A stretch of 64,000 bases of DNA from Geobacter sp. AOG1 (GCF_019972315.1 NZ_BLIZ01000001.1:3474472-3538471), one strand, 5' to 3'; positions 5,630-62,731 are shown, counted from the stretch's first letter. Numbers and translations: made by a program. Notes: generated by a model from the sequence alone, not told the origin.

Positions 5630-5690
5630 TGCTCTCTTCCTTTATGACATAGACGATATACAGGGGCGACCATGATCGCCCCTGCGGATT

Positions 5691-6881: not shown

Positions 6882-6943
6882 GTCCGATTCCTCCCGGGTT
6901 CTCCCCAATGATGATGAAACAATTCTCGGTAGATCTGAAAAAA

Positions 6944-7019
<76 letters not shown>

Positions 7020-7031
7020 ATTGTGGAAAAT

Positions 7032-7108
7032 TGGAGCGGGAAACGGGACTCGAACCCGCGACCCTCAGCTTGGAAGGCTGACGCTCTAGCCAACTGAGCT
7101 ACTCCCGC
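7032..7108 (-). tRNA. tRNA-Gly (anticodon TCC)
   Basis: GCGGGAGTAGCTCAGTTGGCTAGAGCGTCAGCCTTCCAAGCTGAGGGTCGCGGGTTCGAGTCCCGTTTCCCGCTCCA on minus strand. Confidence 0.88.
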
Positions 7109-7220
7109 CAATTCTACGCGTATGAGGTTTTTTGAGATTGCAACCGCCAGCCCAACCCCAGTCCGATCGACCGGTGGTCTCCTGGGAGAGTGCCGCAGCT
7201 GCAAACTCTGTAGCATTTTA

Positions 7221-7306
7221 TGGTGGAGGGAGGAGGATTCGAACCTCCGAAGTCGTCCGACGACAGATTTACAGTCTGTTCCCTTTGGCCACTCGGGAAT
7301 CCCTCC
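7221..7306 (-). tRNA. tRNA-Tyr (anticodon GTA), long variable arm
   Basis: GGAGGGATTCCCGAGTGGCCAAAGGGAACAGACTGTAAATCTGTCGTCGGACGACTTCGGAGGTTCGAATCCTCCTCCCTCCACCA on minus strand. Confidence 0.88.
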
Positions 7307-7335
7307 AGACGAAGAACCAGCAAAAAACCGTTTAG

Positions 7336-7411
7336 TGGAGCTGGCGATGGGACTCGAACCCGCAACCTGCTGATTACAAGTCAGCTGCTCTACCAATTGA
7401 GCTACGCCAGC
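7336..7411 (-). tRNA. tRNA-Thr (anticodon TGT)
   Basis: GCTGGCGTAGCTCAATTGGTAGAGCAGCTGACTTGTAATCAGCAGGTTGCGGGTTCGAGTCCCATCGCCAGCTCCA on minus strand. Confidence 0.88.
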
Positions 7412-9379: not shown

Positions 9380-9455
9380 TTTTTCACCACAGGGGACGCA
9401 ATACTATCAGACATAAGCAGCGCTACAGTGAGACCGAGTCAAACAGCACGTTCAC

Positions 9456-10496
9456 TCACGGAAAGAGCGCCAGCCCATCTAGCCCCAGGTTCTCCGGAAA
9501 GCCGTACATGACATTCATGTTCTGCACCGCCTGTCCCGACGCCCCCTTCACCAGGTTGTCGATGGCGGAGACGATGATGACGCGGCCGGTCCGCTGGTCG
9601 ACGGTGACACCGATATCACAGAAGTTTGACCCCCTGACAAAGGAGGTGGAAGGAAACTGTCCCAAGGGGAGTATCCGGACAAATGCCTCGCCATGGTAGA
9701 ACTCGTTATAGAGGGTAACGAGCTGTTCAGTCGTAACCTTTTTCACCGGCCGCGCATAGATGGTGGAGAGTATCCCGCGGTCCATCGGTACCAGGTGCGG
9801 GGTGAAGGAAATGGTGAGTTTACCTCCCGCCAGAAGAGACAGTTCCTGCTCAATTTCCGGGATGTGCCGGTGGACACCGCCGACGCCGTAGGCCTTGAAA
9901 CCGTCGTTCACCTCGCAGTAGAGGTTGTCCACCTTGGCGCTCCGCCCGGCGCCGGAGACTCCCGACTTGGAATCGGCGATGATCGTGGCGGGATCAAGCA
10001 GTTTTTTCCGCAACAATGGCGCCAGCCCGAGGATGATGCTGGTCGGATAACAGCCGGGATTGGCTACCAGAGCCGCACCGGCGATCTTCTCCCGCCGCAG
10101 TTCGGGGATGCCGTACACGGCCTTTTTCAGGAGCGCTGGGCTCATGTGGGGCTCGTACCATTTTTCATACTCTCCGGCATCCTGCAACCGGTAGTCCGCA
10201 GAAAGATCGACGACCCGCTTCTTCAGCTTGAGAAAGGTGGGAATCACCTCCATTGCCGCCTTGTGGGGGAGCGCGGTAAAGATCAGTTCCGCCTTCTCCG
10301 CCACCCGTACCGGTTCAAGGTTTTCCAATACCTGGTCGCAACGGCCACGCAAGCTCGGGAAGAGGTCGGAGACCCGTTTCCCGGCGCTCTGTTCGGATGT
10401 GACGCAGGTCACCGCAACCTCCGGATGACCGTGGAGAATTCTCAGCAGTTCCACTCCCGTGTAACCGCTGGCACCGACGACGGCAACTTTCAGCAT
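9456..10496 (-). CDS. argC: N-acetyl-gamma-glutamyl-phosphate reductase
   Basis: 346 aa [27 protein letters not shown]..., ArgC family with catalytic Cys region. Confidence 0.93.
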
Positions 10497-30742: not shown

Positions 30743-33259
30743 TTATGACCGCACCGCTTCCGGATGCGTCGCCGGTACCGCGGGGGCCGGCTTGTTCAGG
30801 AGTGCGGGAATGTCGATCCCGGGGAGGAGCTTCGCCAACGTCCCCATCAGCCCGTCGGCAGCATTGCCACCACCCGTGACCAACACATCCGGGACGATCT
30901 TGATGCTGCCGTTCTGGATGGCAGCCGCTATAAGTTCCACGATCTTGATCTGCTTGATGGCCTCTTCGCCGATCGCCTCCTGCTGCTTGTTGTAGGCCTG
31001 GGCGGTCGCTTCACCGATGGCGGCGATCTTGGATGCCTCGCCGTCGCCGATGGCCTTCAGCCGCTTCCCTTCGCCGGTACCCTCAAGCGCCTTAGCCTCC
31101 GCCGAACCTTCGGCAAGGGTGATCATCTCGGTCTTCTTCTGGGTCGCCACCTTCACGGCGATTTCCGAGGCCACCAGGGTCGGCTGCTGGTCGGCGGTGG
31201 CGCGCATCTTCTCCATCTCGGTCCGTTCCGCCTGGGACTTCTGCTCCATCTTGTACATCTCCTGCTGCTGCTCGGCGATGATCCGCTTGGTCTGGGTCTG
31301 CATCAGGTCTTCGGGGAGCTTGATCTGGCAGATCAGGACCGACACGCACTCCACGTGATATTTCTCCAGGTCGATGCGGGCACGGGTTTCGGCCTTGGTC
31401 TGCTCTTCCGAGCGGCTCTGGAGAAAGTTCATCGCCGAGGCGGTGGAGGCCTGGTTCCGGAACGACGAGTCGATCATCGGATGGATGACGTGCTGGATCA
31501 GGTTGTCGATGGAGCCGACTTTGGCCACCATGTAGGGTGCCTGGTCCGGCCGGACGCGGATGACCACCTTGACCGCGACCTGGATCGGGAAACCGTCCTT
31601 GGAGATGACCGTCAACTGGTCGAAGCGGGTGTCCTCCTGGTCGTCCCAGTCGATGGTGATGTTGGTGGTGTCGATGATATAGGCCATGAAGGCCCGCCGG
31701 TTGAGGTAATAGCGCCCCGGACCGGCCACTTCTTCCTGGATGCCGCGGTAGCCTTTGGGCACCACGTACTTCTCTTTTCCCTCTTCTATGGAAGCCCCGT
31801 TCTGGGACGATCCCAGGCGTTTCTTCATCTCCTCCGTCGGGTCCTCGCCGACGTTCGACACGATGACCCCGACCTGTCCCCGCTCGACGACGGCAACATC
31901 ATCGGTTTCCACGCTGAACATGAACGGGTTGATGTAATAGGTTCCCGGCCGGAGCACGTCCAGCTGCGGACCGCGCTGTCCCTGCTTGGTCAGGAAGGCG
32001 GAGCCGTCCTGGTAATCGTTATGACCGGTGACGGGACTGGCCACGTATTCCCGTTCCGGCAGCGGGATGCCGTCCAGGGCGGTCACCAGCCCGATCTTGT
32101 TGGCCTCGACGACCACCGCGGGGGCGATCTGGATCTGGAACAGGTTCAGGTTGATCCGGTAGGTGCCGGGGAGCAGCACGTCGATCTGCGGCCCCTTCTG
32201 CCCGCCGTTTTTCAGGAACGACTCACCGTTCTCGTAATTGGAGTGCCCCGGCACGCTCTGCGCCAGGAGCCGCCCCATGGGGATGGGGGCGCCGTCCTGG
32301 GCGGTGACCATTCCCACCTCCCCCTTGGCGATCACCACGGCCGCGGCCTTGGTGATCTTGAACAGGTTCGGATGGATACGGTAGACACCCGGCGGCAGGA
32401 TCTCCGTCTGCGGCCCCTTCTGCCCGCCGTTCTTGATGAAATCCTGGCCGGACTGGAAGGAGTTGTGCCCCGGTACCACATTGGCAAAAATGCGCCCGGC
32501 CGGGATGGCCGAACCGTCGGCGGATTCGACCATGCCGATCTCCCCTTCGCTGATCTTGGTGGCCGAGCTCTTGGTCACCTTGAACAGGTAGGGATTGATG
32601 CGGTAGTTCCCCGGCGGGATGATCTCGATCTGCGGTCCCTTCTGGCCGCCGTTCCCGATGAAGGCTTCACCGTTCTGGAAAGATGAATGCCCCTCCACCG
32701 CCTGGGCGAAGATCTTCCCTTCCGGGATGGCGGCGCCGTCCACCGACTCCACGATGCCGATCTCGAAATCCTTGATCTCGGTAACTTCCCCCTTGGTCAG
32801 CTTGAACAGGTAGGGGTTGATCCGGTACTTGCCCGGAGGGAGCACCTCGATCTGCGGCCCCTTCTGGCCGCCGTTCTTGATGAACGCCTCGCCGTCCTGG
32901 AAGGAATTGTGGCCGGCCACCACCGCGGCAAAGATCCTCCCGGCCGGGATGGACGAGCCATCCACCGACTCGATGAGGCCGATCTCGTTTTCCAGTATCT
33001 CGGTAAAAACGCTCTTGGTCGCCTTGTAGATGAACGGGATCAGGAAGTGCAGGCCGGGGCCCAGCGTCCGGGCCTGGATACCGACTTCGTTCCCCAGCGC
33101 CACGACCCGCCCCTGGGGCATCTTGCTGCCGAACCACCGGCGCTCGATCAGGGCAATCTCGTTCCCCCCCACAATGACAACGGATGCATACAGCAGGACG
33201 GCTGCGGGAACCAGCAGGGCGAAATACCCCCAATGCTTGACTACAAAATCGAGAACCAT
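30743..33259 (-). CDS. flotillin/YqiK-like SPFH protein with seven tandem ~74-aa N-terminal repeats
   Basis: 838 aa; N-terminal TM; repeats ...IPxGRIFAxxVxGHxxFQxGExFIKNGGQKGPQIEVLPPGxYRINPYLFKxTK...; then flotillin-like region with EA-rich coiled coil (…AEQQQEMYKMEQKSQAERTEMEKMRA…). Confidence 0.8.
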   Translation of the reverse strand: MVLDFVVKHWGYFALLVPAAVLLYASVVIVGGNEIALIERRWFGSKMPQGRVVALGNEVGIQARTLGPGLHFLIPFIYKATKSVFTEILENEIGLIESVDGSSIPAGRIFAAVVAGHNSFQDGEAFIKNGGQKGPQIEVLPPGKYRINPYLFKLTKGEVTEIKDFEIGIVESVDGAAIPEGKIFAQAVEGHSSFQNGEAFIGNGGQKGPQIEIIPPGNYRINPYLFKVTKSSATKISEGEIGMVESADGSAIPAGRIFANVVPGHNSFQSGQDFIKNGGQKGPQTEILPPGVYRIHPNLFKITKAAAVVIAKGEVGMVTAQDGAPIPMGRLLAQSVPGHSNYENGESFLKNGGQKGPQIDVLLPGTYRINLNLFQIQIAPAVVVEANKIGLVTALDGIPLPEREYVASPVTGHNDYQDGSAFLTKQGQRGPQLDVLRPGTYYINPFMFSVETDDVAVVERGQVGVIVSNVGEDPTEEMKKRLGSSQNGASIEEGKEKYVVPKGYRGIQEEVAGPGRYYLNRRAFMAYIIDTTNITIDWDDQEDTRFDQLTVISKDGFPIQVAVKVVIRVRPDQAPYMVAKVGSIDNLIQHVIHPMIDSSFRNQASTASAMNFLQSRSEEQTKAETRARIDLEKYHVECVSVLICQIKLPEDLMQTQTKRIIAEQQQEMYKMEQKSQAERTEMEKMRATADQQPTLVASEIAVKVATQKKTEMITLAEGSAEAKALEGTGEGKRLKAIGDGEASKIAAIGEATAQAYNKQQEAIGEEAIKQIKIVELIAAAIQNGSIKIVPDVLVTGGGNAADGLMGTLAKLLPGIDIPALLNKPAPAVPATHPEAVRS

Positions 33260-34686: not shown

Positions 34687-34746
34687 GGCGAACGTCTGTG
34701 GGCGCTGACCTGACAGATTTCGGTCAGGTCGTGCGCCTGGTTAGCG
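34687..34746 (-). repeat. attC-like site A (plus strand GGCGAAC ... GTTAGCG)
   Basis: Internal perfect 8-bp stem GACCTGAC/GTCAGGTC; GTTAGCG is the reverse complement of CGCTAAC in site A2. Confidence 0.75.
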
Positions 34747-34755
34747 AATGCTTTG

Positions 34756-35274
34756 CTAAAGAAATTTGAAGTAATTCCAGCCAGTATTCTTTTTCCCAAA
34801 AAAATACGAATAAAAGAGTATCAACGAGAATAGCATTAGAAATATGAGCCCAACGCTGTCCATGTTTTTTATGGTTATAACTGCATATATAGTCAGGGTT
34901 ATAATTGAATAAAGGATAATACTTCTTAGGAATACGTACCTATTCTTGCCTTTATACACGCCAGTGATTTCTCTTGCCCATTTAACCCAAATAAAGTGAA
35001 AAAGCATTGGAATAAGAAGCATTAGATCTGCTGCACTTGATGTGCTTCCAGTATCGCCAAGTGAAAGTAAAAATCCTATTGTAGACAGGATAAATATCGC
35101 GAAATAAACGCAAGCGAATGTACGTTTAATCATATCATCCACTGAACCCTGTGATGCCTCGGTTATATGAACTTTTCCGCTTAGTTCATTGTCGCAGTTG
35201 TAGCAGAAAGATGGCCCCCCCTGTTCTATGTCATTTTCAGCGCCGCAAACTGTGCAATAAATTTTGGTTGTCAT
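34756..35274 (-). CDS. cassette ORF: zinc-ribbon (CxxC...CxxC) plus 4-TM membrane protein (172 aa)
   Basis: MTTKIYCTVCGAENDIEQGGPSFCYNCDNEL... then hydrophobic helices; AT-rich codon usage; start 35274 (track ORF extends upstream through the attC). Confidence 0.6.
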   Translation of the reverse strand: MTTKIYCTVCGAENDIEQGGPSFCYNCDNELSGKVHITEASQGSVDDMIKRTFACVYFAIFILSTIGFLLSLGDTGSTSSAADLMLLIPMLFHFIWVKWAREITGVYKGKNRYVFLRSIILYSIITLTIYAVITIKNMDSVGLIFLMLFSLILFYSYFFGKKNTGWNYFKFL

Positions 35275-35282
35275 TCTATTCT

Positions 35283-35341
35283 CGCTAACGGCTTTGCGCT
35301 TGACCTGACGGGCGGGCTTATGCCCGTTCATGGTCCGAGCG
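35283..35341 (-). repeat. attC-like site A2 (CGCTAAC ... GTTCGGT)
   Basis: Contains GACCTGACGGGC...GCCCGT...GGTC palindrome; boxes complementary to sites A and B. Confidence 0.75.
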
Positions 35342-35475
35342 CTGGTTCGGTGTGTCTTCTTCCCAGTCATTTCTGAATGGTCAAAACCATTTCAGCCATT
35401 CACCTAATTTCTCCATAAACTTTTCGCCGAAAATTGCCCCTATTCCCACAAAAACTCCGAATGTTAAGACCAAAG

Positions 35476-35643
35476 CTAATTTAGAAGTGTTTTGAACTCA
35501 GAATGAGACAGATTCATAACATAAGAACCGACAACGAAGGAGCCAAGTACAAGCCCCCAAATAACCCCGCCATAATGACGTGTGGATTTTTGTTCTTCAA
35601 GTTTGGTCGGTTCATCGATTCTATTTTGATTATGGTCTGTCAT
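35476..35643 (-). CDS. cassette ORF: 55-aa single-TM peptide (below track cutoff)
   Basis: MTDHNQNRIDEPTKLEEQKSTRHYGGVIWGLVLGSFVVGSYVMNLSHSEFKTLLN; ATG 9 nt after attC B. Confidence 0.45.
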   Translation of the reverse strand: MTDHNQNRIDEPTKLEEQKSTRHYGGVIWGLVLGSFVVGSYVMNLSHSEFKTLLN

Positions 35644-35650
35644 CTTATTC

Positions 35651-35705
35651 ACCGAACGCCGTGGGCGCTGACCTGACGGGTTTTAGGTCTAGCGTCTGGT
35701 TGGGT
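35651..35705 (-). repeat. attC-like site B (ACCGAAC ... GTTGGGT)
   Basis: Shares GTGGGCGCTGACCTGAC core with site A; boxes complementary to A2 and C. Confidence 0.75.
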
Positions 35706-35706
35706 G

Positions 35707-36018
35707 CTACCTTATTGCCTCTAATACCATTAAGCCGAAATTGACGATGAATGCGGCAATACCGACATACCAAGAAATACGATTCAAATGGGGTATCAAC
35801 CGGCCTTTCTTGATTTCAAAATATCGCTGACGCAAGTAACCAAAAAGCTTCAGATTAAAGCTGATCGAGAAACTGCTTTCGGCAAACATTAAAATTGGGT
35901 TTTCTCCGTTAAGGCGAATAATCAAAAACATATATGCCGTCGTTATTGGGAAAATTACTCCGACAATGACGAGGATTTGGTTACATATGCCAATTGCTTG
36001 ATGAATGTTATTGTTCAT
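35707..36018 (-). CDS. cassette ORF: 103-aa 3-TM membrane protein
   Basis: MNNNIHQAIGICNQILVIVGVIFPITTAYMFLIIRL...; AT-rich. Confidence 0.55.
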   Translation of the reverse strand: MNNNIHQAIGICNQILVIVGVIFPITTAYMFLIIRLNGENPILMFAESSFSISFNLKLFGYLRQRYFEIKKGRLIPHLNRISWYVGIAAFIVNFGLMVLEAIR

Positions 36019-36030
36019 TTTATTTTATCC

Positions 36031-36101
36031 ACCCAACGTGCGAGAGCGCAGCGGCGGGCGCGGGGTTATCGCGACCGACCGCCTGCCGCGCTTAGTTAGA
36101 T
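36031..36101 (-). repeat. attC-like site C (ACCCAAC ... GTTAGAT)
   Basis: GC-rich imperfect palindrome GCGCAGCGGCGGGCG / CGCCTGCCGCGC; boxes complementary to B and D. Confidence 0.75.
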
Positions 36102-36115
36102 TTCTTTTCGTGCTC

Positions 36116-36619
36116 CTATCTTACAAACGTCTTTTTCACTCGGGCAGAGACAAAGAAGTAAGTAACCCAGATACAACAACCAATGAAAGTTAGCGCCAAA
36201 ACATCAATGGCGTTATTCAACGTCTTGATCTTTTCAGGTGTGTCTGGCGATGCTTTGATTGATAGGAAGTTAAGATATGCGACGATTAAGTTGGCGAGAT
36301 ACCACAATTTTATGTACCTCGGAAATGATCGCTTTCTTTTGAACAGTAGCATGAGCAAGCCGATTGGTATTATGACTATAATTGCTCCGATAATCATGAT
36401 CGCGAATCTTTCTCCACCTGCTGCAAATGCTACCGCATCGGTAAATGATGAAAGGATCGTGATGACTGAGATTATAAGGCCAACCGCTACAAATATAAGG
36501 GCTCCGTCAATTTTGTTGAAGTTAGGTGCCTCATAGACCAGATTTTCGTGGCCGCAAGAACATCGCAATGTTTCATCATCATTTCCAGTGTACCCGCAAG
36601 AAGGGCAATCCCAAGCCAT
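36116..36619 (-). CDS. cassette ORF: zinc-ribbon (CPSC...CSCGH) plus 4-TM membrane protein (167 aa)
   Basis: MAWDCPSCGYTGNDDETLRCSCGHENLVYEAP... same architecture as the 34756-35274 product. Confidence 0.6.
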   Translation of the reverse strand: MAWDCPSCGYTGNDDETLRCSCGHENLVYEAPNFNKIDGALIFVAVGLIISVITILSSFTDAVAFAAGGERFAIMIIGAIIVIIPIGLLMLLFKRKRSFPRYIKLWYLANLIVAYLNFLSIKASPDTPEKIKTLNNAIDVLALTFIGCCIWVTYFFVSARVKKTFVR

Positions 36620-36639
36620 AAAGCCTCCATTTTCATTTC

Positions 36640-36704
36640 ATCTAACGGGGCTGCGGCGCAGCGGCGTAGCGTAGCGAAGACCGTCTGCCGCCGAGTGGTT
36701 GGTG
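36640..36704 (-). repeat. attC-like site D (ATCTAAC ... GTTGGTG)
   Basis: Body AACGGGGCTGCGGCGCAGCGGCGTAGCGTAGCGAAGACCGTCTGCCGCCG is ~95% identical to site D-prime. Confidence 0.75.
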
Positions 36705-36707
36705 CTT

Positions 36708-37478
36708 TCACCTACCTTTGATGACTTTCATTACAGGCTGATTCAACACTAACTTCTTACGTTTATAGATTTCGACCTCTCCGGGAGGAGTATCCGCGTC
36801 TCCGATTACCCACACTAAGCATCGATAAAGAACCTCGCCACTCTTGAAATCATAATGGTGATTCCCACCACTCCCGTCGAAGGTGAGAGTCCCATTTCGT
36901 AAAATTAAGTCTGGTGTTTCTGAGGATTTTTTTTGAACCGGCCAGACGGCATATCGGAATGTAACGTCAGTAATTTTATCGATACGAATTCTATATTTGG
37001 CAGTTTCCCACTCCAGAATCGGCTCAATAAAATCACGTAGACTGGCATGTAGCTTTTGCTTATCCGCTTCAATCAGCTCAGCTCGCTTACGCTTACCTTT
37101 TTCTGTCTGGTAGTTGATGGCGGTTATTTTTCCTTCCTCATCAAGCCACAATGGCCCGTTTTGGAACATAATTCCTCTCCATCCCATTTCAGACCAATCG
37201 GCTGAAACCTTGGAAGTGGAAATCGATTTTATGATCTTTTCGTCTACTATTTCGTCGTAAGCTTCCAAGAATTGTTTCGGGTTGTCTATGCTTGAAAGGG
37301 GAACCCTCCGTTGTAGCGGGTACGAAACTAAATTTGCTAAAGCCTTTCGGTCTTTACGGGCCACAACTTTTATGAATTTTTTGACCGTGTTTTCAAAACT
37401 CGGCTCAGCACTCCAAAGTGGGCAGGAAAAGGAAAGTATTATTGCAAAGGCAAGTATTGTTGCTGTAATCAGTTTCAT
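36708..37478 (-). CDS. cassette ORF: secreted hypothetical protein (256 aa, signal peptide)
   Basis: MKLITATILAFAIILSFSCPLWSAEP...; start at ATG 37478 (track ORF 36708-37622 runs through the attC repeat). Confidence 0.6.
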   Translation of the reverse strand: MKLITATILAFAIILSFSCPLWSAEPSFENTVKKFIKVVARKDRKALANLVSYPLQRRVPLSSIDNPKQFLEAYDEIVDEKIIKSISTSKVSADWSEMGWRGIMFQNGPLWLDEEGKITAINYQTEKGKRKRAELIEADKQKLHASLRDFIEPILEWETAKYRIRIDKITDVTFRYAVWPVQKKSSETPDLILRNGTLTFDGSGGNHHYDFKSGEVLYRCLVWVIGDADTPPGEVEIYKRKKLVLNQPVMKVIKGR

Positions 37479-37487
37479 TCTTATCCT

Positions 37488-37551
37488 CACCAACGGGGCT
37501 GCGGCGCAGCGGCGTAGCGTAGCGAAGACCGTCTGCCGCCGCGTGTTAGGA
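37488..37551 (-). repeat. attC-like site D-prime (CACCAAC ... GTTAGGA)
   Basis: Near-identical body to site D; boxes complementary to D and to TCCTAAC at 38366. Confidence 0.75.
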
Positions 37552-38352
37552 CATTTTTGCCTTATAATGCTCTGCCATGGCTTCATTTTTAAGCTCTTTC
37601 GCCATGTAGTAGAGTTTTTCAAACTTACCGGGACAATCTCGTTCTTTTTCTATTTCATGGAACGCAGTTTCGAGATCTTCATAGGAAGCGAACCATGCCG
37701 GCGCAGTTGCTAGAAAAGCCGCTACAAGATCAAGGACCATATCTTCAGCATTAGAACCATCACGTTCTACCCACCAGACATCTTTACGAGTAGCATTTGC
37801 AGGGTTATCTATACTCTGACGGCACTTCTGTTTCGAAAAATCGAAGTTTTCAAGGCGAAGAGATTGATGAAGGTAGATACCAACTGGCAGGCCATCTTTG
37901 TCATACTCAATTCCCTTTCCTTCTGGGTCGTACTTATTGATGACAAATGGGAAATATACTCCCAAGGTGCACATGAAGGAAGAAGGAGTAAAGCCGGTAA
38001 CGTCCGAGAAATGCTTGCCTACAGCCTCGACACTGACGACAAATACCGAGGATATATTGTATTTGTAGCTTCTTTTACCTTTAAACTTTGTAAATCCATG
38101 CTGACGTATGACTGGGAACAGATGTCTTTTTAAGGCTTTATTTATCTCCGCAGTGCCGACTGATTTCACACCAATTTCAGTTGTTACATTTGCTTCGGCT
38201 TTAATCTGCCTCTTTTTATGTTTCCAATTGTCCCATAGTATGTAAATTCCGAAAATAAGCAGTAATGGAGACAGCAATAACCCCAGGAAAATTGCAATGA
38301 TGAATCCAGGAATTCTCCACGGTTGTTTTATCAGTTTCTCGAAAATTTTCAT
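37546..38352 (-). CDS. cassette ORF: N-terminally membrane-anchored hypothetical protein (268 aa)
   Basis: MKIFEKLIKQPWRIPGFIIAIFLGLLLSPLLLIFGIYILW...; ATG 14 nt after the core box at 38366-38372. Confidence 0.6.
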   Translation of the reverse strand: MKIFEKLIKQPWRIPGFIIAIFLGLLLSPLLLIFGIYILWDNWKHKKRQIKAEANVTTEIGVKSVGTAEINKALKRHLFPVIRQHGFTKFKGKRSYKYNISSVFVVSVEAVGKHFSDVTGFTPSSFMCTLGVYFPFVINKYDPEGKGIEYDKDGLPVGIYLHQSLRLENFDFSKQKCRQSIDNPANATRKDVWWVERDGSNAEDMVLDLVAAFLATAPAWFASYEDLETAFHEIEKERDCPGKFEKLYYMAKELKNEAMAEHYKAKMS

Positions 38353-38365
38353 TTTCCTTTTATTG

Positions 38366-38440
38366 TCCTAACTAGCTATTGATCAGTTCGCGCGCGTGCG
38401 CGTGAACTGGTCATTCACCCAATTGGAACATTTCTCCACC
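38366..38440 (-). repeat. E-type element: core box TCCTAAC plus 26-bp GC palindrome plus conserved tail
   Basis: TCCTAAC is the exact partner of GTTAGGA (site D-prime); followed by CAGTTCGCGCGCGTGCGCGTGAACTG and ACCCAATTGGAACATTTCTCC; a related copy is at 40905-40990. Confidence 0.6.
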
Positions 38441-38442
38441 GC

Positions 38443-38913
38443 TTACAACTTCTCCAGCAGCGCACCGAACCGCTCCACAAGAATGTCCACTTCCTTCCCG
38501 ATCCGCTCGTCCGGCGCCCCGATGGCGACCGGCCCGAAATGTCCTATCCCCGTGAGTCCCTGCACGACGCAGCCGTGGATCAGGAAGCATTTGAGGATAT
38601 CCAGCAGCACCGCGTCCCCCCCGCCGCCGATGACCCCTTCGGAGGTGAAGGCCGCCGCAGCCTTCCCCTCCAGCTTCTTGTAGTACTTGACGCTCTCGTC
38701 GACGAACTTTTTGATGGGCCAGGCCATGGTGCCGAAGTAGTTGGGCGAACCGACGATGTAGCCGTCGTAGCCCGGCAGGGAATCAATCGGCACCTCCTCC
38801 ACCGGTATCAGGTCAGCCTTTATGCCGCGGACAACCAGCCCCTTGGTGATCATCTCCGCCATTTTCTTCGTATTGCCGCTGCGGGAATAGTAGGTGACGA
38901 GCACGGTTTTCAT
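38443..38913 (-). CDS. flavodoxin-like FMN-binding protein
   Basis: 156 aa MKTVLVTYYSRSGNTKKMAEMI... flavodoxin fold signature; GC-rich, native-like codon usage. Confidence 0.8.
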   Translation of the reverse strand: MKTVLVTYYSRSGNTKKMAEMITKGLVVRGIKADLIPVEEVPIDSLPGYDGYIVGSPNYFGTMAWPIKKFVDESVKYYKKLEGKAAAAFTSEGVIGGGGDAVLLDILKCFLIHGCVVQGLTGIGHFGPVAIGAPDERIGKEVDILVERFGALLEKL

Positions 38914-38925
38914 CGACAGTTCTCC

Positions 38926-40071
38926 TTATGGTGCCGGTGACGCGGCTATGAATGAACTTCTGGCTTCATTCACGACGCCGAGTATCTTCTTCATGCCGAA
39001 GCCGCTGAACCGGATGCTCGACGGTACATCCGGCAGGTCTGACTTGATCAGGATGCCCGTACTGAAGAAGCCGATTTTGTTGGGAAAGTCTTCCATCCGG
39101 TCAAATGGGATCAGGAAGCGGTGAAACATCACCCGTACTTCAAGAGCATCGCCGTAGACCATGAGCCTGAAGAAGGGGACTGATCCATGGAATAGGAAAA
39201 TTGAACCGCCACCGGTGAAGCTCGCGAGAAGTTTTCGGTTTTTCTCAAAGGGGGAGGGAAGATAGTTGAAGATCGTCGGTCCCAGAAATACGAACAGGAT
39301 TATCCCGGGAAATACCAATCCGATCGACTCGGGCCCCACATACTTCTCCGTTGCGAATACCAGCAGTAGCGGCACTGCTATCAACAAGGGGAAGGTCCCC
39401 ATTATCCCGAAGGGAAACGGAGAATCTTTGTATTTGGCTTCGACAGTCTGGCTGGTTGTCCTCTCATTCATCCTTTCGGAGAGCGAACGAGAGATGTTTT
39501 CCGGGTTATACTGAGCTACGTCGTACGGTTCGTCCTTGACAGGAAGGCGGCCCAAGTACCTGAACCCGAAATAGGCTGGCAACCCGAACTGGGCTAGTGC
39601 GATAGCAAAAAAAACATACGGGATGTTCTTGGATATCCCGCCGCCGGCAGGGAATTGCATGAACTCAGGCAGTATCATAAGCGGAAAAAGAATTATCTCG
39701 GCAAGAAGCAGAATGACTGCCGCCTGACCAAACCTTTTCCCCCACGGCTCCAATTCCAGAACCCCACGTGCAGCGATAAGAAACAAAACACCGACGGCAA
39801 TAAAGGCAATCAGTGCTACATACGGATACGACGCGGGAATGTGAAAATCCGCCTTAAACGGTTCGGTTTGGGGAAGGATGAAATTCCAAAGCCCGCCGAA
39901 AAGGCATCCCCAACCAAGAAACTTCATGGTCTTTGCCGCTTTTTTCGGATTCGGTGCGCCTGTCCGCAACTCCTGAATCAAATCGATAAATCCCATACAC
40001 GCCTTTCTCGCCAAGAAAAGGAAAAGAGGAAAAGGGACATCCATGATAAGTAAAGTCAAGGGGAACTGCAA
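38926..40071 (-). CDS. hypothetical polytopic membrane protein (381 aa)
   Basis: ~8 predicted TM helices, no recognizable domain. Confidence 0.55.
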   Translation of the reverse strand: MQFPLTLLIMDVPFPLFLFLARKACMGFIDLIQELRTGAPNPKKAAKTMKFLGWGCLFGGLWNFILPQTEPFKADFHIPASYPYVALIAFIAVGVLFLIAARGVLELEPWGKRFGQAAVILLLAEIILFPLMILPEFMQFPAGGGISKNIPYVFFAIALAQFGLPAYFGFRYLGRLPVKDEPYDVAQYNPENISRSLSERMNERTTSQTVEAKYKDSPFPFGIMGTFPLLIAVPLLLVFATEKYVGPESIGLVFPGIILFVFLGPTIFNYLPSPFEKNRKLLASFTGGGSIFLFHGSVPFFRLMVYGDALEVRVMFHRFLIPFDRMEDFPNKIGFFSTGILIKSDLPDVPSSIRFSGFGMKKILGVVNEARSSFIAASPAP

Positions 40072-40142
40072 TCGTGTCAGGCTTGCAATTGTGTAATTAT
40101 AAATTGCAAAACTGCAAACCTGACACCACTATCGTTCCATTC

Positions 40143-40829
40143 TTACTTTTGAGCTTGAGATTGAGAAACTTTATCAGCCGTTTTCTGTATAACTTGTTGT
40201 GCTACTTTTTTAAAAACTCGATTCATAAGCTTTTCAATATTTGTTGAGTGCATTACCCCCATTCCTTCCCCTTCGCGGTCTGTTTCATTGATGACCGTAT
40301 CAATAAGTACATCTGAGCTTTTGCCATCAAACAGATTTAAGTTAAGAGTTGCGTTTCTCCGACTGGTAACAGTCAAAAACCCTGTTTCATTGACAAACTC
40401 GAACGACAGTAATTGCCCACCTATTATGTAATCACTAGTCTGCTCTTTGTTTAATTCTTTGATGCTTTGTGCATTGGACTTTGAGAGCACCTTGTCCAGC
40501 GCCTTTGCCTTAAAGCCAGCTTTTGTCAATTCTTGAACCAGAAGTTCTTGGAGTAAGTCTTTGACTGGTATGTAATCAGTTTCTTTGTACGTCATGCCAA
40601 ATTTCCAAGGGCCTTGTAATGCAACAAAACTTTCGCTTTTAACATTACCCTCCTCGACCCACGCCCTTTTATCCTCAAACTTAGCAACACCTAAAGAATA
40701 TTTTTCTAATTCTGTTGCGTTTGATAGACGTGCAGCATCAGCTTGATAAGCGACATCAAATGACCGCGTACACCCGCTTGAGAACGCAACTACAATTAAA
40801 CCAATCACAACCAACCATTTCATTTTCAT
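40143..40829 (-). CDS. hypothetical lipoprotein (228 aa; lipobox FSSGC)
   Basis: MKMKWLVVIGLIVVAFSSGC...; start at ATG 40829 after AAGGAG; AT-rich. Confidence 0.6.
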   Translation of the reverse strand: MKMKWLVVIGLIVVAFSSGCTRSFDVAYQADAARLSNATELEKYSLGVAKFEDKRAWVEEGNVKSESFVALQGPWKFGMTYKETDYIPVKDLLQELLVQELTKAGFKAKALDKVLSKSNAQSIKELNKEQTSDYIIGGQLLSFEFVNETGFLTVTSRRNATLNLNLFDGKSSDVLIDTVINETDREGEGMGVMHSTNIEKLMNRVFKKVAQQVIQKTADKVSQSQAQK

Positions 40830-40904
40830 CGTCTTGTCTCCTTTTTGTTTGATACTCCAAGAGATACTGTTGACCACCTAAACGGAGCTTTTGCCTTGGC
40901 GCGC

Positions 40905-40990
40905 AACACGTTATTGAGCGGTTCACGCACACGCGCGTGAACCGCTGATCTACCCAAATGGAACATTTCTCCCGTGAAACGCTTCTTTCC
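40905..40990 (-). repeat. F-type element (second copy of the E-type palindromic element)
   Basis: GCGCAAC box, CGGTTCACGCACACGCGCGTGAACCG palindrome, then ACCCAAATGGAACATTTCTCC; aligns with 38366-38440. Confidence 0.55.
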
Positions 40991-41027
40991 ACCCCGGTTT
41001 CAAGTGCGGGCGTACCTTCACGCAAAA

Positions 41028-41175
41028 AACCGCCCAGCCGGCATATTGCCAGCATGGGCGGTCTCGATGGGGTACAGGGGCCTGCTCATGGCGCGCTCCC
41101 AGACAGTGCAGTATTCAGAAGAATGAGACTTTTGTAACCCTCCGCGCATCGGCTGTCAAGGAGAAACTGTCACCG
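41028..41175 (-). repeat. Copy 1 of a ~150-nt repeat: promoter-like boxes, RBS, 23-codon micro-ORF (41028-41099), intrinsic terminator (41034-41072)
   Basis: ~88% identical to 47445-47595; minus strand has TTGACA-17nt-TACAAA, GGGAG-6nt-ATG, MSRPLYPIETAHAGNMPAGRFFA, then ACCGCCCATGCTGGCAATATGCCGGCTGGGCGGT hairpin plus TTTTTT. Confidence 0.6.
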
Positions 41176-45606: not shown

Positions 45607-47322
45607 TCATTGCATCTTTCGTATGCGACCGTTATCGCCATCGGCTATGAAGAGGCTCTTGCCATCCGTGGTGATGCACCGGGGATGGTTGAATCTCACC
45701 GCGGTTCCGGTCCCGTCGGCATACCCCATCGTTTGACCCGGGAGGGTACCGGCGGGAGCGCCTGCCAGGGTGGTGACGGCTTTCGTGGAGAGGAGCATCC
45801 TGCGAACGTTGCCGGCGGCCTGGTCCGCGATATAGAGGTATGCGCCATCGGTAATGATCCCCATGGGTTCCTGGAAACGTGCCGCCGTGCCGATACCGTC
45901 CGTCCCCCCCGTGGCCAAGGGAGCGCCTGCCAGGGTGGTGACCTCTCCGGTGGCGATCACCACTTTTCTGATAGTGCAATTGTACGTGTCCGCCACGTAG
46001 AGATACGTGCCGTCCGTGGTGATCCCCTCAAGCCCGTTGAACCTCACTGCAGCGCCGATTCCGTCAGCAGAACCGACGGTACCCGCCGTACCGGCCAGAG
46101 TGGTGACTTCACCGGTGGCGATCACAATCTTCCTGATTGAGGAATAGCCGAAATCCGCCACATAGAGGTTCGTGCCGTCCGTGGTGATTCCCTGGGGTTT
46201 TCCGAAGCGCGCCGCCGTGCCGATCCCGTCAATCGGCGTGGGGGGGGGATAGTCCGTGGTCTGGCCTGCCAGGGTGGTGACTTCTCCGGTGGCAATGACT
46301 ATCTTCCGGACATTGAGGTTCTTTGAGTCGGTCATATAGAGGTTGGTGCCATCCGTGGTGATGCCTGCAGGTCTTCCGAACTGGGCCGCCGGTCCCGTCC
46401 CGTCCGCATAGCCATTAAGATTGAAAGTACCCGCCAGGGTGGTGACGACGCCGGTGGCGATTACCGTTTTGCGGACCGTGCCGTTGATCTCCGTTACGTA
46501 GAGGTTGGCGCCATCCGTGGTGATGCCGAATACTTGTCCGAAAGACGCCGCCGTTCCCGTCCCGTCGATTGACCCCCACGTGCTGCCTGCAAGGGTGCTG
46601 ACGGTGACGGGTGCCTTGCTGAGCGGGATTCCCTGAACTGCGCCACCCATGAGCCTGGGTGTCACCGGTGTCACACTGCCGGATGCCGCTGAGACGACGC
46701 TCGTTCCAATGGCATTTGTCGCCGTCACGGTAAAGGTATAGGCGGTGCCGTTGGTCAGGCCTGTCACGGTTATCGGACTTGTCGTACCTGTTGCCGTGAT
46801 GCCGCCGGGGATCGAGGTCACGGTGTAACCGGTTATCGTGCTGCCGCCGCTGGGCGGAGCCACAAAGCTCACTACCGCCAGGCGATCTCCAAATGTGGCG
46901 GTAACCCCGGTCGGCGCCCCGGGTGCCGTCGCCACCGGCGTCACGCTGTTGGATGCCGCCGATGGGGCACTGGTTCCCGCGACATTCGTTGCCGTCACGG
47001 TAAAGGTGTAGGGAGTGCCGTTGGTCAGGCCTGTCACGGTTATCGGACTTGCCGCGCCTGTTGCGCTCAGGCCGCCGGGGTTAGAGGTTACGGTGTATGC
47101 TAAAATTGGCATGCCGCCATCAGAGGCAGGTGCCGTAAAATTCACGGTTGCCTGTGTATTTCCCTCTATGGCACTGCCGATGGTCGGCGCCCCGGGAGAG
47201 GTTCCCATACCAGTACTGGAAGAGCTGGAGGGAGAGTAAAAGTACGATCCGTTGGAACTGCCACTTCCACAACCGGTTACCGTCATCACACACAAAACCA
47301 GCATTACATAGAGCAATTTCAT
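45607..47322 (-). CDS. lipoprotein with two fibronectin-III-like domains and NHL beta-propeller repeats
   Basis: 571 aa; lipobox VTGCGSG; duplicated ...ITVTGLTNGT(P/A)YTFTVTATN... then six NLY(V/M)(T/A)D...IRK(I/V)VIATG repeats. Confidence 0.8.
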   Translation of the reverse strand: MKLLYVMLVLCVMTVTGCGSGSSNGSYFYSPSSSSSTGMGTSPGAPTIGSAIEGNTQATVNFTAPASDGGMPILAYTVTSNPGGLSATGAASPITVTGLTNGTPYTFTVTATNVAGTSAPSAASNSVTPVATAPGAPTGVTATFGDRLAVVSFVAPPSGGSTITGYTVTSIPGGITATGTTSPITVTGLTNGTAYTFTVTATNAIGTSVVSAASGSVTPVTPRLMGGAVQGIPLSKAPVTVSTLAGSTWGSIDGTGTAASFGQVFGITTDGANLYVTEINGTVRKTVIATGVVTTLAGTFNLNGYADGTGPAAQFGRPAGITTDGTNLYMTDSKNLNVRKIVIATGEVTTLAGQTTDYPPPTPIDGIGTAARFGKPQGITTDGTNLYVADFGYSSIRKIVIATGEVTTLAGTAGTVGSADGIGAAVRFNGLEGITTDGTYLYVADTYNCTIRKVVIATGEVTTLAGAPLATGGTDGIGTAARFQEPMGIITDGAYLYIADQAAGNVRRMLLSTKAVTTLAGAPAGTLPGQTMGYADGTGTAVRFNHPRCITTDGKSLFIADGDNGRIRKMQ

Positions 47323-47444: not shown

Positions 47445-47595
47445 TCATAACGCAAAAAACCGCCCAGCCGGCATATTGCCGGCATGGGCGGTTTGGATGG
47501 GGTACAGGGGCCTGCTCATGGCGCGCTCCCAGGCGGTGCGTTATTCAAAAGGGTGAAATGTTTGTAACCCTCCGCGCATCGGCTGTCAAGGAGAA
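47445..47595 (-). repeat. Copy 2 of the ~150-nt repeat: promoter-like boxes (47561-47589), RBS, 24-codon micro-ORF (47445-47519), terminator (47451-47492)
   Basis: Minus strand TTGACA-17-TACAAA, GGGAGCGCGCC-ATG, MSRPLYPIQTAHAGNMPAGRFFAL, hairpin ACCGCCCATGCCGGCAATATGCCGGCTGGGCGGT plus TTTTTT; 123 nt upstream of the NHL lipoprotein start. Confidence 0.6.
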
Positions 47596-57577: not shown

Positions 57578-57690
57578 AACCCCGAATTAACAGGGATGAA
57601 CAGGATATACAGGATAAAGCATGAACCCAATGAGCTGGTTATGTTATCCTGATTATCCTGAATATCCCTGTTAATATTCGCGTCAGTTTT
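57578..57690. repeat. ~100-nt imperfect palindrome in the dxs-hpnH intergenic region
   Basis: ATTAACAGGGAT..CAGGATA..CAGGATAA / TTATCCTG..TATCCTG..ATCCCTGTTAAT arms around a ~26-nt centre. Confidence 0.7.
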
Positions 57691-59151: not shown

Positions 59152-60213
59152 ATGACAAGAATTCACTTTATTTTGCCGAACCGCATAGGCGATTCGATTC
59201 TGGCCTTACCTTCTCTCCTTTGTCTGAAACAACTATTACATAACCACAAGCAAGATCCTGTTGAAATAACTGTATTTTCCCATTTCCCTCTCAACCGATT
59301 CTTCCAAGCGTTAAATCTGTTTGAATTCAGAAACTTTGACTTTTTCTCCAAGGTTATGTCTTGGGTCCATCCGCCAGACAAGGCGTACTTTCTCTCGACA
59401 ACCAGCAAGAACATCGGCTACCAGGCGAAAACCAGGTATGGTCTCCGACTGCCTAACAAAAAGCATGTGCATTATGACATTAATTTGCCCTATCTCGGCA
59501 TGTCACCGCTGGACTCCGAATTGCCGGACGATTTAGTCTCCTTCCTGCAATCAAATTTCTCCCTGCCAATGTACTCAATCAAACATTTTGGCATCTGCCT
59601 TGAGTTTGGCTTTTCAGTCGAACAGATAATCAATGAATTCAGGTTCGATAGTTCCAGCCTCTTGGCCACCAACCAGTATTTCACCAACGATCCGTTGTTT
59701 ACCTCCGAATACATGGTTTTCTGCATGGAAGCGGCATACAACAAAAATCGTGCAGCCTATCGACGCTGGAATGAAGAAAATTTCCTCGCTTTTGCAGAGA
59801 AGCTTTACCTGCACTACGGAATTGAAAGTATTTTCATAGGACTGCAGAACCATCCGCAGATCATGCAGAAGAGTTATTTTAAAGATATGCGGGGGAAACT
59901 CACCTTAGACCAGATTGTACAGCTACTGAGCCATTCACGTGGATACATTGGCAATGACACCGGGCCCCTACATTTGGCTAACCTGTTGAGAAAAAAATCG
60001 ATCGGCATCTATGCCTCCGATGGAGCTATCGCCTATAGACCTCTGTTCCCGGAATTGAACAGGGCATGCCTAAATACACAAACTCCGGAAGAGATTTATT
60101 CTTGTACAGAGTTTCTCATAGCGGATGACTGTCCTCCGGCCCGGGGGAAACAGTCATGCCCCAACCAGAATACGCCAGATCCAACCTGCATACCTTCAAC
60201 TCCGTGTCGTTAA
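59152..60213 (+). CDS. GT9-family glycosyltransferase (heptosyltransferase-like)
   Basis: 353 aa MTRIHFILPNRIGDSILALPSL... and C-terminal ...IGNDTGPLHLANLL...; markedly lower GC than neighbours. Confidence 0.75.
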   Translation: MTRIHFILPNRIGDSILALPSLLCLKQLLHNHKQDPVEITVFSHFPLNRFFQALNLFEFRNFDFFSKVMSWVHPPDKAYFLSTTSKNIGYQAKTRYGLRLPNKKHVHYDINLPYLGMSPLDSELPDDLVSFLQSNFSLPMYSIKHFGICLEFGFSVEQIINEFRFDSSSLLATNQYFTNDPLFTSEYMVFCMEAAYNKNRAAYRRWNEENFLAFAEKLYLHYGIESIFIGLQNHPQIMQKSYFKDMRGKLTLDQIVQLLSHSRGYIGNDTGPLHLANLLRKKSIGIYASDGAIAYRPLFPELNRACLNTQTPEEIYSCTEFLIADDCPPARGKQSCPNQNTPDPTCIPSTPCR

Positions 60214-61078: not shown

Positions 61079-62731
61079 ATGTCAGAAATGTTTTGTAACC
61101 AGTGTGAGCAGGCAGCAAAGGGAACCGGCTGCGAAGTGATCGGTGTCTGCGGCAAGAATCCGGAAGTCGCCGCCCTTCAGGACCTGATGCTGTACGGGCT
61201 GAAGGGGGTTGCCATCTATGCCGACAAGGCGCGGGAGCTGGGCGCCAAGGACGAGACGGTCGACCTGTTCCTGATCGAGGGGCTCTTCACCACTGTCACC
61301 AACGTGGACTTCGACCCGGTCAGCATCGCCGGCAAGCTCCGTAAATGCTACGACAGCAAGGAAAAGATTAAGGCGATCTACGAGACCGCCTACCGCACCA
61401 AGAACGGCGCCAGTGCCCCCCCGATCACCACCGGCCCCGCAGCCTGGGTCATCGCCGGCGACCTGGCAGGGCTCGTCACACAGGGGAAAGAGCACGGCAT
61501 CAGCACCCAGCACACCGACCAGGACATCCTCTCCGCCATCGAGATCCTCATCTACGGTCTCAAGGGTATGGCCGCCTATGCCGACCACGCCTTTATCCTC
61601 GGCAGAAAGGACGAGGAAGTCTTCGCCTTCTTCCACAAGGCGCTGGCCACCACCACCGATCCGGCCAAGGGACTGATGGACTTCGTCGGCCTCACCATGG
61701 AGTGCGGCAAGCTGAACATCAAGGTGATGGGAATGCTCAACGAGGGGCACATCGCCCACTACGGCAAGCCGGTACCGACCAAGGTCCCGATCGGCACCAG
61801 GAAGAACAAGGGAATCCTCGTCTCCGGTCACGACCTGCGCATGCTTGAGGAGCTCCTGAAACAGACCGAGGGGAAAGGGATCGACATCTATACCCACGGC
61901 GAGATGCTCCCGGCCCACGCCTACCCGGAACTGAAGAAGTATTCCCATCTCTACGGCAACTTCGGCGGCGCCTGGCAGGACCAGCACAAGGAGTTCCCCA
62001 ACTTCCCCGGCGCCATCATCTTCAACACCAACTGCATCCAGCGTCCGGCCGACTCCTACAAGGATCGCCTCTTCTCTTGGGGACAGGTGGGGTGGCCCGG
62101 CATCAAGCACATCACCGGCTGGAACTTCAGCGAAGTGATCAACAAGGCCCTCGAATGTCCCGAACTCGCCGATGCTCCGGACAAGGAGATCCTCACCGGC
62201 TTCGGCCATGACGCAGTTCTCAGTGTCGCCGACAAGGTCATAGACGGGGTTAAAGCGGGTGCCATCAAGCACTTCTTCCTCATCGGCGGCTGCGACGGCG
62301 CCAAACCGGGACGCAACTACTACACCGAACTGGCGGAAAAGGTTCCCAGCGACTGCGTCATCCTGACCCTGGCCTGTGGCAAGTACCGCTTTAACAAGCT
62401 GGAGTTCGGCGACATCGGCGGCATTCCACGGCTCCTGGACGTGGGACAGTGCAACGACGCCTATTCGGCGGTGCAGATCGCCCTGGCCCTGGCGGGCGCC
62501 TTCAACTGCGGCGTCAACGACCTGCCGCTCTCCATTATCCTCTCCTGGTATGAGCAGAAGGCGGTTGTCATCCTCCTGTCCCTCCTCCACCTGGGGATCA
62601 AAAACATCAAGATCGGCCCCGCGCTGCCGGCCTTCATTACCCCCAACGTCCTCAACTTCCTGGTGGAAAACTTCAACCTCGGCCCCATCACCACCCCGGA
62701 AGCAGACCTCAAGGTGGCCCTGGGGCAGTAA
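61079..62731 (+). CDS. hcp: hybrid-cluster protein / hydroxylamine reductase
   Basis: MSEMFCNQCEQAAKGTGCEVIGVCGK... N-terminal Cys cluster of Hcp; start at ATG 61079 after AAGGAGG. Confidence 0.93.
   Translation: MSEMFCNQCEQAAKGTGCEVIGVCGKNPEVAALQDLMLYGLKGVAIYADKARELGAKDETVDLFLIEGLFTTVTNVDFDPVSIAGKLRKCYDSKEKIKAIYETAYRTKNGASAPPITTGPAAWVIAGDLAGLVTQGKEHGISTQHTDQDILSAIEILIYGLKGMAAYADHAFILGRKDEEVFAFFHKALATTTDPAKGLMDFVGLTMECGKLNIKVMGMLNEGHIAHYGKPVPTKVPIGTRKNKGILVSGHDLRMLEELLKQTEGKGIDIYTHGEMLPAHAYPELKKYSHLYGNFGGAWQDQHKEFPNFPGAIIFNTNCIQRPADSYKDRLFSWGQVGWPGIKHITGWNFSEVINKALECPELADAPDKEILTGFGHDAVLSVADKVIDGVKAGAIKHFFLIGGCDGAKPGRNYYTELAEKVPSDCVILTLACGKYRFNKLEFGDIGGIPRLLDVGQCNDAYSAVQIALALAGAFNCGVNDLPLSIILSWYEQKAVVILLSLLHLGIKNIKIGPALPAFITPNVLNFLVENFNLGPITTPEADLKVALGQ

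Follow-up and report, generated by a model that had tools for sequence, protein, structure and literature searches.

A stretch of 64,000 nucleotides from Geobacter sp. AOG1 (GCF_019972315.1, NZ_BLIZ01000001.1:3474472-3538471) was analysed as a whole and is referred to as the window; positions are counted from its first letter. Between 34687 and 38372 lies what is very probably a chromosomal integron gene cassette array with no integrase gene beside it, in which six GC-rich imperfect palindromes (55-71 nt, xxxxAAC...GTTxxxx on the plus strand) alternate with six open reading frames (ORFs) on the minus strand. The G+C content (GC) of the array region is 0.43, against 0.58-0.60 in the flanks. The palindromes, all assigned to the minus strand as candidate attC sites, were named A (34687-34746, GGCGAAC...GTTAGCG on the plus strand, site of cassette 1 at the distal end of the array), A2 (35283-35351, cassette 2), B (35651-35705, cassette 3), C (36031-36101, cassette 4), D (36640-36704, cassette 5) and D-prime, written D' (37488-37551, cassette 6). 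D and D' are 95% identical (repeat family D11). The upstream, promoter-proximal end of the array is marked by the attI-like element E1 (38366-38440), of which a second copy, E2, lies at 40901-40975, both on the minus strand.

Neighbouring elements are chained through their outer boxes. On the plus strand, GTTAGCG of A (34740) pairs with CGCTAAC of A2 (35283), GTTCGGT of A2 (35345) with ACCGAAC of B (35651), GTTGGGT of B (35699) with ACCCAAC of C (36031), GTTAGAT of C (36095) with ATCTAAC of D (36640), GTTGGTG of D (36698) with CACCAAC of D' (37488), and GTTAGGA of D' (37545) with TCCTAAC of E1 (38366). Each GTTxxxx box is the reverse complement of the next xxxxAAC box over 7/7 positions at 6/6 junctions, and if AAC and GTT are taken as given, the probability that all six 4-nt boxes match exactly by chance is (1/256)^6 = 3.6e-15. 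The chain had been described in an earlier sequence-only reading of this DNA, and its coordinates and pairings were confirmed; of the seven attC-type elements which that reading had counted, six were upheld and the seventh, at 38366, was found to be part of E1. At all six junctions the 5' core of the cassette is complementary to the inverse core of its own attC, as required of attC ends, and the chained boxes would be the footprint of G|TT crossovers.

All six cassette ORFs are on the minus strand and have a GC of 0.37-0.43. Cassette 1 (34693-35288) contains an ORF at 34756-35274 (172 aa, GC 0.37) with an N-terminal Cys-rich zinc-ribbon-like motif and a hydrophobic C-terminal part, cassette 2 (35289-35656) one at 35476-35643 (55 aa), and cassette 3 (35657-36036) one at 35707-36018 (103 aa, hydrophobic). 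The ORF of cassette 4 (36037-36645) lies at 36116-36619 (167 aa, zinc-ribbon-like N-terminus followed by a DUF2569 membrane domain), that of cassette 5 (36646-37493) at 36708-37478 (256 aa, signal-peptide-like N-terminus) and that of cassette 6 (37494-38371) at 37546-38352 (268 aa, N-terminal transmembrane segment). The ORFs start 7-20 nt past the upstream site (9-20 nt in the sequence-only reading), after a purine-rich stretch resembling a Shine-Dalgarno (SD) sequence. The distances from stop codon to own attC are 9, 124, 1, 14, 3 and -6 nt for cassettes 1 to 6, the stop codon of cassette 6 being inside D'; the ORFs thus end near their own sites, as had been proposed, except for the 55-aa ORF (124 nt), whose coding status is the least certain of the six.

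The cassette 4 product matched Pfam PF10754 (DUF2569, E 3e-18), and no credible Pfam or NCBIfam family was found for the other five. The proteins of cassettes 1 and 4, both of which begin with Cys-rich motifs, had been taken for paralogues; this was rejected, as no homology was detectable between them (BLASTP E = 31). A homologue of the cassette 1 protein, 36% identical, is encoded upstream of intI at 336-821 of locus L044 (loci in other genomes and contigs are cited by L numbers), between attC sites at 132-232 and 853-914 that are recognised by the covariance model R3 described below, and is therefore a cassette there too. The exact cassette 6 protein was found only on Logan contig DRR200237_335 (L001, 3538 nt, run DRR200237). 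L001 is also the sole public contig encoding both the exact cassette 6 protein and the exact flavodoxin-like protein from the gene next to E1; it breaks just past E2 and, on the other side, just past the start of the cassette 6 ORF, near attC D'. Short-read assemblies appear to fragment at these repeated sites.

Folding of the elements and inspection for extrahelical bases, as proposed in the sequence-only reading, gave imperfect hairpins in 6/6 elements. On the plus strand the 5' spacer is the longer one and the bulge is on the 3' arm (except in A), which is the polarity expected of attC sites; it agrees with that of 66 intI-linked sites, and also with the covariation-supported structure of alignment A5. 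Read along the bottom strand, the attC class of Geobacteraceae and Desulfuromonadales starts with an R' box xxxxAAC, which a ~5-nt spacer separates from a stem of ~7 bp; a second stem follows a single extrahelical base on the 3' arm, and a 2-3-nt spacer then leads to GTTxxxx. The six elements belong to this structurally distinct class of attC sites. By comparison with the orientation of intI in L020 (described below), the plus strand of the window is the attC bottom strand, predicted to be the recombinogenic one, which means that the cassettes read on the minus strand, matching their ORFs. Compared with the attC sites of class 1 integrons (59-base elements, e.g. aadA2, aadB, blaVIM-2, aac(6')-Ib), the window sites share ends of the RYYYAAC / GTTRRRY type, an imperfect hairpin, one or more extrahelical bases on the 3' arm of the bottom strand, asymmetric bottom-strand spacers, the 5' one being the longer, and stop codons located at the inverse core or within it. 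They differ in having a ~7-bp stem before a single extrahelical base and spacers of ~5 and 2-3 nt, whereas class 1 sites have a 3-bp L box, an extrahelical G, 6 bp, an extrahelical T and spacers of 6 and 5 nt. Core boxes match exactly throughout the chain in the window, whereas an exact inverse core is missing from several of the class 1 arrays examined.

Covariance models were built from bona fide class 1 attC sites extracted from plasmid integrons (R1, 6 sites; R2, 11 sites) and from sites of the Geobacteraceae class (R3). Neither R1 nor R2 scored any window element significantly, and none was reported at E <= 10 except C with R1, at full length on the minus strand (11.4 bits, E = 3, non-significant). 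In control scans R1 missed the genuine arr-3, dfrA5 and dfrA14 sites. R2 found canonical-looking sites upstream of intI in L054, L104 and L110 (29-47 bits, on the expected strand), found none in L035 or L041, and in L038 gave no more than weak matches (up to 21.7 bits; 12.8 bits for an A/B-like site). The class 1 models fail on the same type of site next to intI, and their failure in the window is therefore attributable to the models, not to the elements. Pooling the 30 harvested sites in one model gave an inconsistent register (60% paired in the main helix), and training was therefore restricted to the 18 sites of the Geobacteraceae class, each located upstream of intI in a metagenome contig; the window contributed none of them. 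In the resulting R3 alignment 88% of positions in the proposed structure were paired, against 29-50% with slid partners, and 48 compensatory cells were counted against 19 in shuffles, with 0/500 shuffles reaching 48.

R3 was scanned over the whole window with filters off. Its top six matches were the six elements, at full length, at the coordinates of the sequence-only reading and all on the plus strand: D' (35.7 bits, E 9e-7, the top match of the window), A2 (31.2 bits, E 1e-5), D (29.1 bits, E 4e-5), B (27.5 bits, E 1e-4), C (20.4 bits, E 0.006) and A (14.7 bits, E 0.17). The next match, at 13.5 bits, was noise, and within the 64 kb no match above noise was found outside the array, so that the repeats are not dispersed there; dispersal through the genome away from ORF boundaries had been named in the sequence-only reading as evidence against an array. 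Scoring as non-attC by a covariance model had likewise been named as evidence that would speak against attC sites; in form this is what the class 1-trained R1 and R2 returned, and the clade-specific R3 did not. In intI loci outside the training set 13/13 R3 matches were upstream of intI on the intI strand, and the three matches in L020 were on the opposite strand, as is the intI of that locus.

The element families of the window recur in other genomes. A search of a species-representative genome collection, the window's own genome being outside the matches, with the A/B pattern AACG-N2-3-GTGGGCGCTGACCTGAC returned 20 loci, nearly all from Geobacteraceae or Desulfuromonadales, including Geomonas oryzae S43, and usually in arrays. 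The family, to which B belongs, has the consensus xxxxAAC-GNN-GTGGGCGCTGACCTGAC-loop-GGTCAGGTC-T-AGCG-GCCTG-GTTxxxx, strongly conserved with variable outer tetranucleotides; A is its GTGCG variant, also seen in L016 and L018. A2 is closely similar to an intI-linked site in L035 (5400-5469), the core of D is 92% identical to L038 8515-8553, located 1.5 kb upstream of intI on the intI strand, and D-like sites are present in L020 (7094-7156) and L041 (1773-1836). L020 (contig JARKOR010000210.1), one of the 20 A/B loci, is a complete integron. Its IntI is 41% identical to IntI1 and matches the NCBIfam model TIGR02249 ('integron integrase') with 344.5 bits at a cut-off of 265; its cassettes are downstream of intI on the opposite strand and carry an A/B-type site, a D-type site and a canonical attC (34.8 bits with a class 1 model), all three on the strand predicted from the orientation of intI. 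Sites homologous to those of the window are thus found next to genuine integron integrase genes in L020, L035, L038 and L041.

For a wider comparison, 80 metagenome loci encoding relatives of the L020 integrase were collected, and sites upstream of intI were harvested by the chain rule together with a hairpin. Among the 66 candidate sites obtained, read on the intI strand, the 5' spacer exceeded the 3' spacer in 42 against 10, and bulges were on the 3' arm in 45 against 8; bottom strands of class 1 attC sites have the same polarity. Inside this single integrase family, canonical class 1-like attC sites scoring 29-47 bits with the class 1 model accompany an IntI with 58-70% identity to the L020 protein (L054, L104, L110), and the divergent Geobacteraceae class missed by that model accompanies an IntI with 77-81% identity to it (L035, L038, L041); attC geometry seems to track the integrase subclade. 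A separate feature of L020 is a GC-rich element of ~150 nt starting GTTCTGCGGTCGCTGCGCTCCCGCAGAACGGGGCCGCGAGC, located right after two different attC sites (~3120-3270 and 7850-7981), which may be a small mobile element targeting attC sites.

The head of the array was examined in the same way. E1 reads TCCTAAC-TAGCTATTGA-[14-bp palindrome]-...CCCAATTGGAACATTTCTCC and E2 reads GCGCAAC-ACGTTATTGA-[13-bp palindrome]-...CCCAAATGGAACATTTCTCC; the two are 78% identical over 68 nt, and the left AAC box of E1 (TCCTAAC) would be its crossover with cassette 6. A profile search retrieved further copies in L005, L008, L013, L017 and L047, in the same orientation as the neighbouring attC sites and always at the upstream end of the array. 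The family is ~100 nt long and consists of a variable xxxx, AAC-TCGTTATTGA, a perfect palindrome of 13-14 bp and TGATCTACCCAAA-GGAACATTT, continuing in the other genomes as AG.CTGTGATCAT.AAAAA, beyond which the flanks are unrelated. Pairing of the left box with the neighbouring attC conforms to the chain rule at 4/4 positions in the window, L005 and L013 and at 3/4 in L008 and L017. Eight intI loci also have the core xxxxAAC-NNRTTATTGA, at a distance of 610-1034 nt upstream of their intI match and on the intI strand (~0.05 chance matches were expected for these stretches), and Geotalea uraniireducens Rf4 has it upstream of its intI; the first cassette junction in the intI loci falls at this core, which thus has both the location and the behaviour of attI. 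E1 is accordingly described as an attI-like site, the putative head of the array, with a core shared with the attI of this integrase clade.

E1 and E2 were rejected as attC sites: they have no far-side GTT box and no bulges, their stem being perfect, ~50 nt are conserved beyond it, neither R2 nor R3 matches them, and the family is always at the end of an array. A reading of the palindrome as a LexA box was also dismissed, since in a manual check its spacing did not fit the Geobacter motif GGTT-N2-C-N4-G-N3-ACC. The genes beyond E are unrelated between genomes and always co-oriented with the cassettes, and in L005, L008, L013 and L017 no integrase was found within 0.9-6.4 kb beyond E. L047 has a normal attI beside intI and a copy of E 0.7 kb further on; between the two are two small ORFs that by eye resemble a BrnT/BrnA toxin-antitoxin pair. 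In L020 (1591-2091) and in L119, Geotalea uraniireducens Rf4 (9441-9827), a conserved small ORF starting MKTRL(I/K)LKPGQKGTK is located between intI and attI, co-oriented with the cassettes, and beside it several iteron-like repeats (ATCTAC.T.TAGATG and relatives) adjoin the attI core. This ORF, which L039 and L041 do not have, could encode an accessory factor or regulator.

Integrase-like coding sequence or remnants were searched for by tblastn with IntI1, the L020 IntI and the L047 IntI, and none was found in the 64 kb; the best E values (0.18-0.4) fell in unrelated genes, and the absence of an integrase from the window noted earlier was confirmed. A weak IntI1 match at 61811-61897 was dismissed as an integrase remnant, being inside a 571-aa ORF that resembles a hybrid-cluster protein (judged from sequence only). 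In a complete integron intI adjoins attI and the array, whereas the neighbours of E1 are a flavodoxin-like and a membrane-protein gene; the attI that such an integron has at the head of its array has a putative counterpart here in E1, assigned by sequence similarity. Because no integrase is present in cis, the locus is a cluster of attC sites lacking an integron integrase (CALIN), as defined for IntegronFinder (Cury et al. 2016, PMC4889954). CALINs are abundant, have a mean of five sites and are in 95% of cases away from any intI pseudogene (PMC4889954). The array resembles them in having at least two attC sites at intervals below 4 kb (its six sites, a number close to that mean, are spaced 310-880 nt), single-ORF co-oriented cassettes whose function is mostly unknown, and neither intI nor an intI pseudogene within 10 kb. 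It is unlike them in one respect: the definition of CALINs uses attC sites only, and catalogued attI sites are those of classes 1-3 only (PMC4889954), whereas at the start of this array there is a recognisable attI-like element, copies of which also head integrase-less arrays in other Geobacteraceae.

A second comparison was made with chromosomal integrons of Geobacteraceae and Desulfuromonadales, namely L020, the metagenome loci L035, L038, L039 and L041, and Geotalea uraniireducens Rf4 (CP000698.1, L119). Shared features are the A/B, A2-like and D-like attC families, the strand polarity, the attI core xxxxAAC-NNRTTATTGA and low-GC cassettes encoding small proteins. Those integrons differ in having intI, passing TIGR02249, beside attI, whereas the window has none; and the core of E1 and E2 is followed by a perfect palindrome of 13-14 bp and AAATG-N3-CATTT, whereas other sequence follows the core at the intI-linked sites.

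The explanation that best accounts for these data, and which we consider very probable, is that 34687-38372 represents six integron gene cassettes inserted serially by an IntI at the attI-like E1. The integrase would have inserted cassettes one after another at E1, each cassette consisting of one promoter-less, low-GC ORF with an SD-like stretch, followed by its own attC. The bottom strand (plus strand of the window) would fold and be cleaved between A and C of AAC, with the top strand exchanged at G|TT, and the cassettes are read from E1 toward lower coordinates. Expression would probably come from read-through of the co-oriented flavodoxin operon into E1, because a scan for a promoter reading into the cassettes, like the Pc of a complete integron, found none in or near E1; the scan covered the sigma-70 type only. 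Excision or insertion at the present day would need a Geobacteraceae-clade IntI, encoded at another place in the genome or brought in by an incoming element. The proposal of a CALIN-type integron cassette array in the sequence-only reading was thereby borne out by the chained boxes, the intI-linked site families in matching orientation, the top six matches of R3, the lack of dispersed copies in the 64 kb and the L044 homologue of a cassette protein.

Several observations weigh against this explanation. The class 1-trained models R1 and R2 do not recognise the elements; element A is marginal with R3 (14.7 bits, E 0.17, the other five being at E <= 0.006) and, unlike the others, has its single bulge on the 5' arm; the nearest relatives (Geobacter and Geomonas, 88-93% identical in the neighbouring 838-aa SPFH protein) are not syntenic here, their SPFH orthologues having unrelated neighbours and no array; and the integrase search covered the 64-kb window only. 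Spreading of the elements as self-mobile palindromic repeats of the repetitive extragenic palindrome (REP) or miniature inverted-repeat transposable element (MITE) kind, with AAC/GTT ends unrelated to integron recombination, would suit short, GC-rich, intergenic imperfect palindromes that class 1-trained attC models do not recognise. It is nevertheless highly improbable, since there is no copy outside the array in 64 kb, the flanked ORFs are of foreign GC, the same families occur in ordered arrays directly upstream of intI with fixed strand polarity, and independent insertion does not give 4-nt boxes that are exactly complementary between neighbours and otherwise variable. Readings as pdif/Xer modules or as a structure resembling clustered regularly interspaced short palindromic repeats (CRISPR) were discarded, being at odds with the length of the sites, their AAC/GTT cores and their link to intI.

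The sequence-only reading had left room for a distal part of a larger chromosomal integron, whose intI and attI would lie outside the window, split off by rearrangement or inserted DNA. It is accepted that CALINs can arise when a rearrangement splits an integron (Cury et al. 2016, PMC4889954), and Geobacter species can carry several intI genes (PMC2426708), but this option was judged improbable, because the array has its own proximal end at E1, which has the attI core of the clade and an AAC box forming the junction with cassette 6; beyond E1 follow ~25 kb of non-integron genes with no more R3 matches and no IntI-like sequence, and in four other genomes E likewise ends the array with no intI within 0.9-6.4 kb. 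Serial insertion at E1 has the same origin in common with a further alternative, which concerns present activity only: the array may be an inert fossil, its capturing integrase since lost and its sites no longer recombinable. The window holds neither intI nor an intI pseudogene, half of the known CALINs are in genomes without IntI (PMC4889954), and the distal sites A and C score lowest with R3. Still, the six junction boxes are exactly complementary and four sites score 27-36 bits with R3, which argues against long neutral decay, and integrases of the clade are widely distributed across the same family, Geotalea uraniireducens and Pelobacter propionicus being among the carriers; loss of all activity is accordingly possible but rather unlikely.

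Beyond E1, between 38.4 and 41.0 kb, a flavodoxin-like gene (38443-38913, minus strand, Pfam Flavodoxin_1) is adjoined by a gene for a 381-aa membrane protein (38926-40071, minus strand). Both have a GC of ~0.51 and are co-oriented with the cassettes, reading into E1, and they are either host genes or one large cassette; no inverse core GGGGAAC that would pair with a GTTCCCC start was found near E1. Element F (40058-40142, no strand assigned) is an AT-rich inverted repeat of 77-85 nt, GGGGAAC...GTTCCAT (I1), which folds. It was matched by none of R1, R2 and R3, and a search of Rfam with 34.6-41.3 kb returned nothing relevant, giving chance microRNA-hairpin matches on F only. Between F and E2 is a lipoprotein-like ORF (40143-40829, minus strand, 228 aa, GC 0.42; a FlgT_M match is weak and below the cut-off). 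F may be an attC of another type for this adjacent low-GC gene, which is a possible seventh cassette. The GTTCCAT box of F does not pair with the left box of E2 (GCGCAAC) and is the exact complement of ATGGAAC inside E2, at 40958, a match that could either be due to chance (~1-2%) or mark a crossover at another site within E2. Related material, comprising E2 and the possible seventh cassette, thus reaches ~41.0 kb.

Other features of the window were recorded as follows. A 146-nt repeat at 41020-41165 and 47450-47595 (copies 91% identical) brackets ~6.3 kb; read on the minus strand, it resembles a small RNA gene of ~110 nt, with a promoter-like TTGACA...TTACAA at its start and, at its end, a strong GC-rich hairpin followed by a T run, and its first copy matched no Rfam family and had a fold z-score of only -1.5. 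Four tandem repeats of 222 nt (32125-33037, 66-74% identical) are part of the 838-aa SPFH/band-7 gene, whose product therefore contains repeated domains; in relatives, small toxin-antitoxin genes abound in some neighbourhoods of its orthologues. A coding region at 45641-46569 contains six beta-propeller-like repeats with a period of ~165 nt, with further repeats at 46663-47118. A second low-GC island (59152-60213, GC 0.45) contains a 353-aa plus-strand ORF and has no flanking attC-like sites, weak model matches at 59617-59700 being noise. Five tRNA genes, Trp and Thr-Gly-Tyr-Thr, are on the minus strand at 5360-7411, and a 32-nt inverted repeat (57586-57675, 84% complementary, with ACAGGAT-like units) is just upstream of a 332-aa ORF starting at 57752.

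An integrase-less array is a known and common kind of locus, and its orphan attI-like start is the unusual detail here. With some hesitation, we suggest that E1 and E2 might be conserved orphan attI platforms of Geobacteraceae, supplied with cassettes in trans and expressed by host read-through; such a platform may consist of the attI core, the 13-14-bp palindrome and AAATG-N3-CATTT, without an integrase and downstream of co-oriented unrelated genes in several genomes. If this were true, one integrase could run several satellite arrays per genome and part of the CALINs would be working sites of cassette capture, not debris, and the match between GTTCCAT of F and ATGGAAC of E2 would further suggest that the integrase can move E. 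The cargo is unremarkable, consisting of small membrane and secreted proteins of unknown function. The locus is a clean, well-delimited integrase-less cassette array in an environmentally important iron-reducing lineage. Clinical class 1 attC models miss the Geobacteraceae site class, and such arrays may be under-counted without broader or clade-specific models, while the recurring attI-like head makes both the origin of CALINs and their possible servicing in trans testable in this clade.

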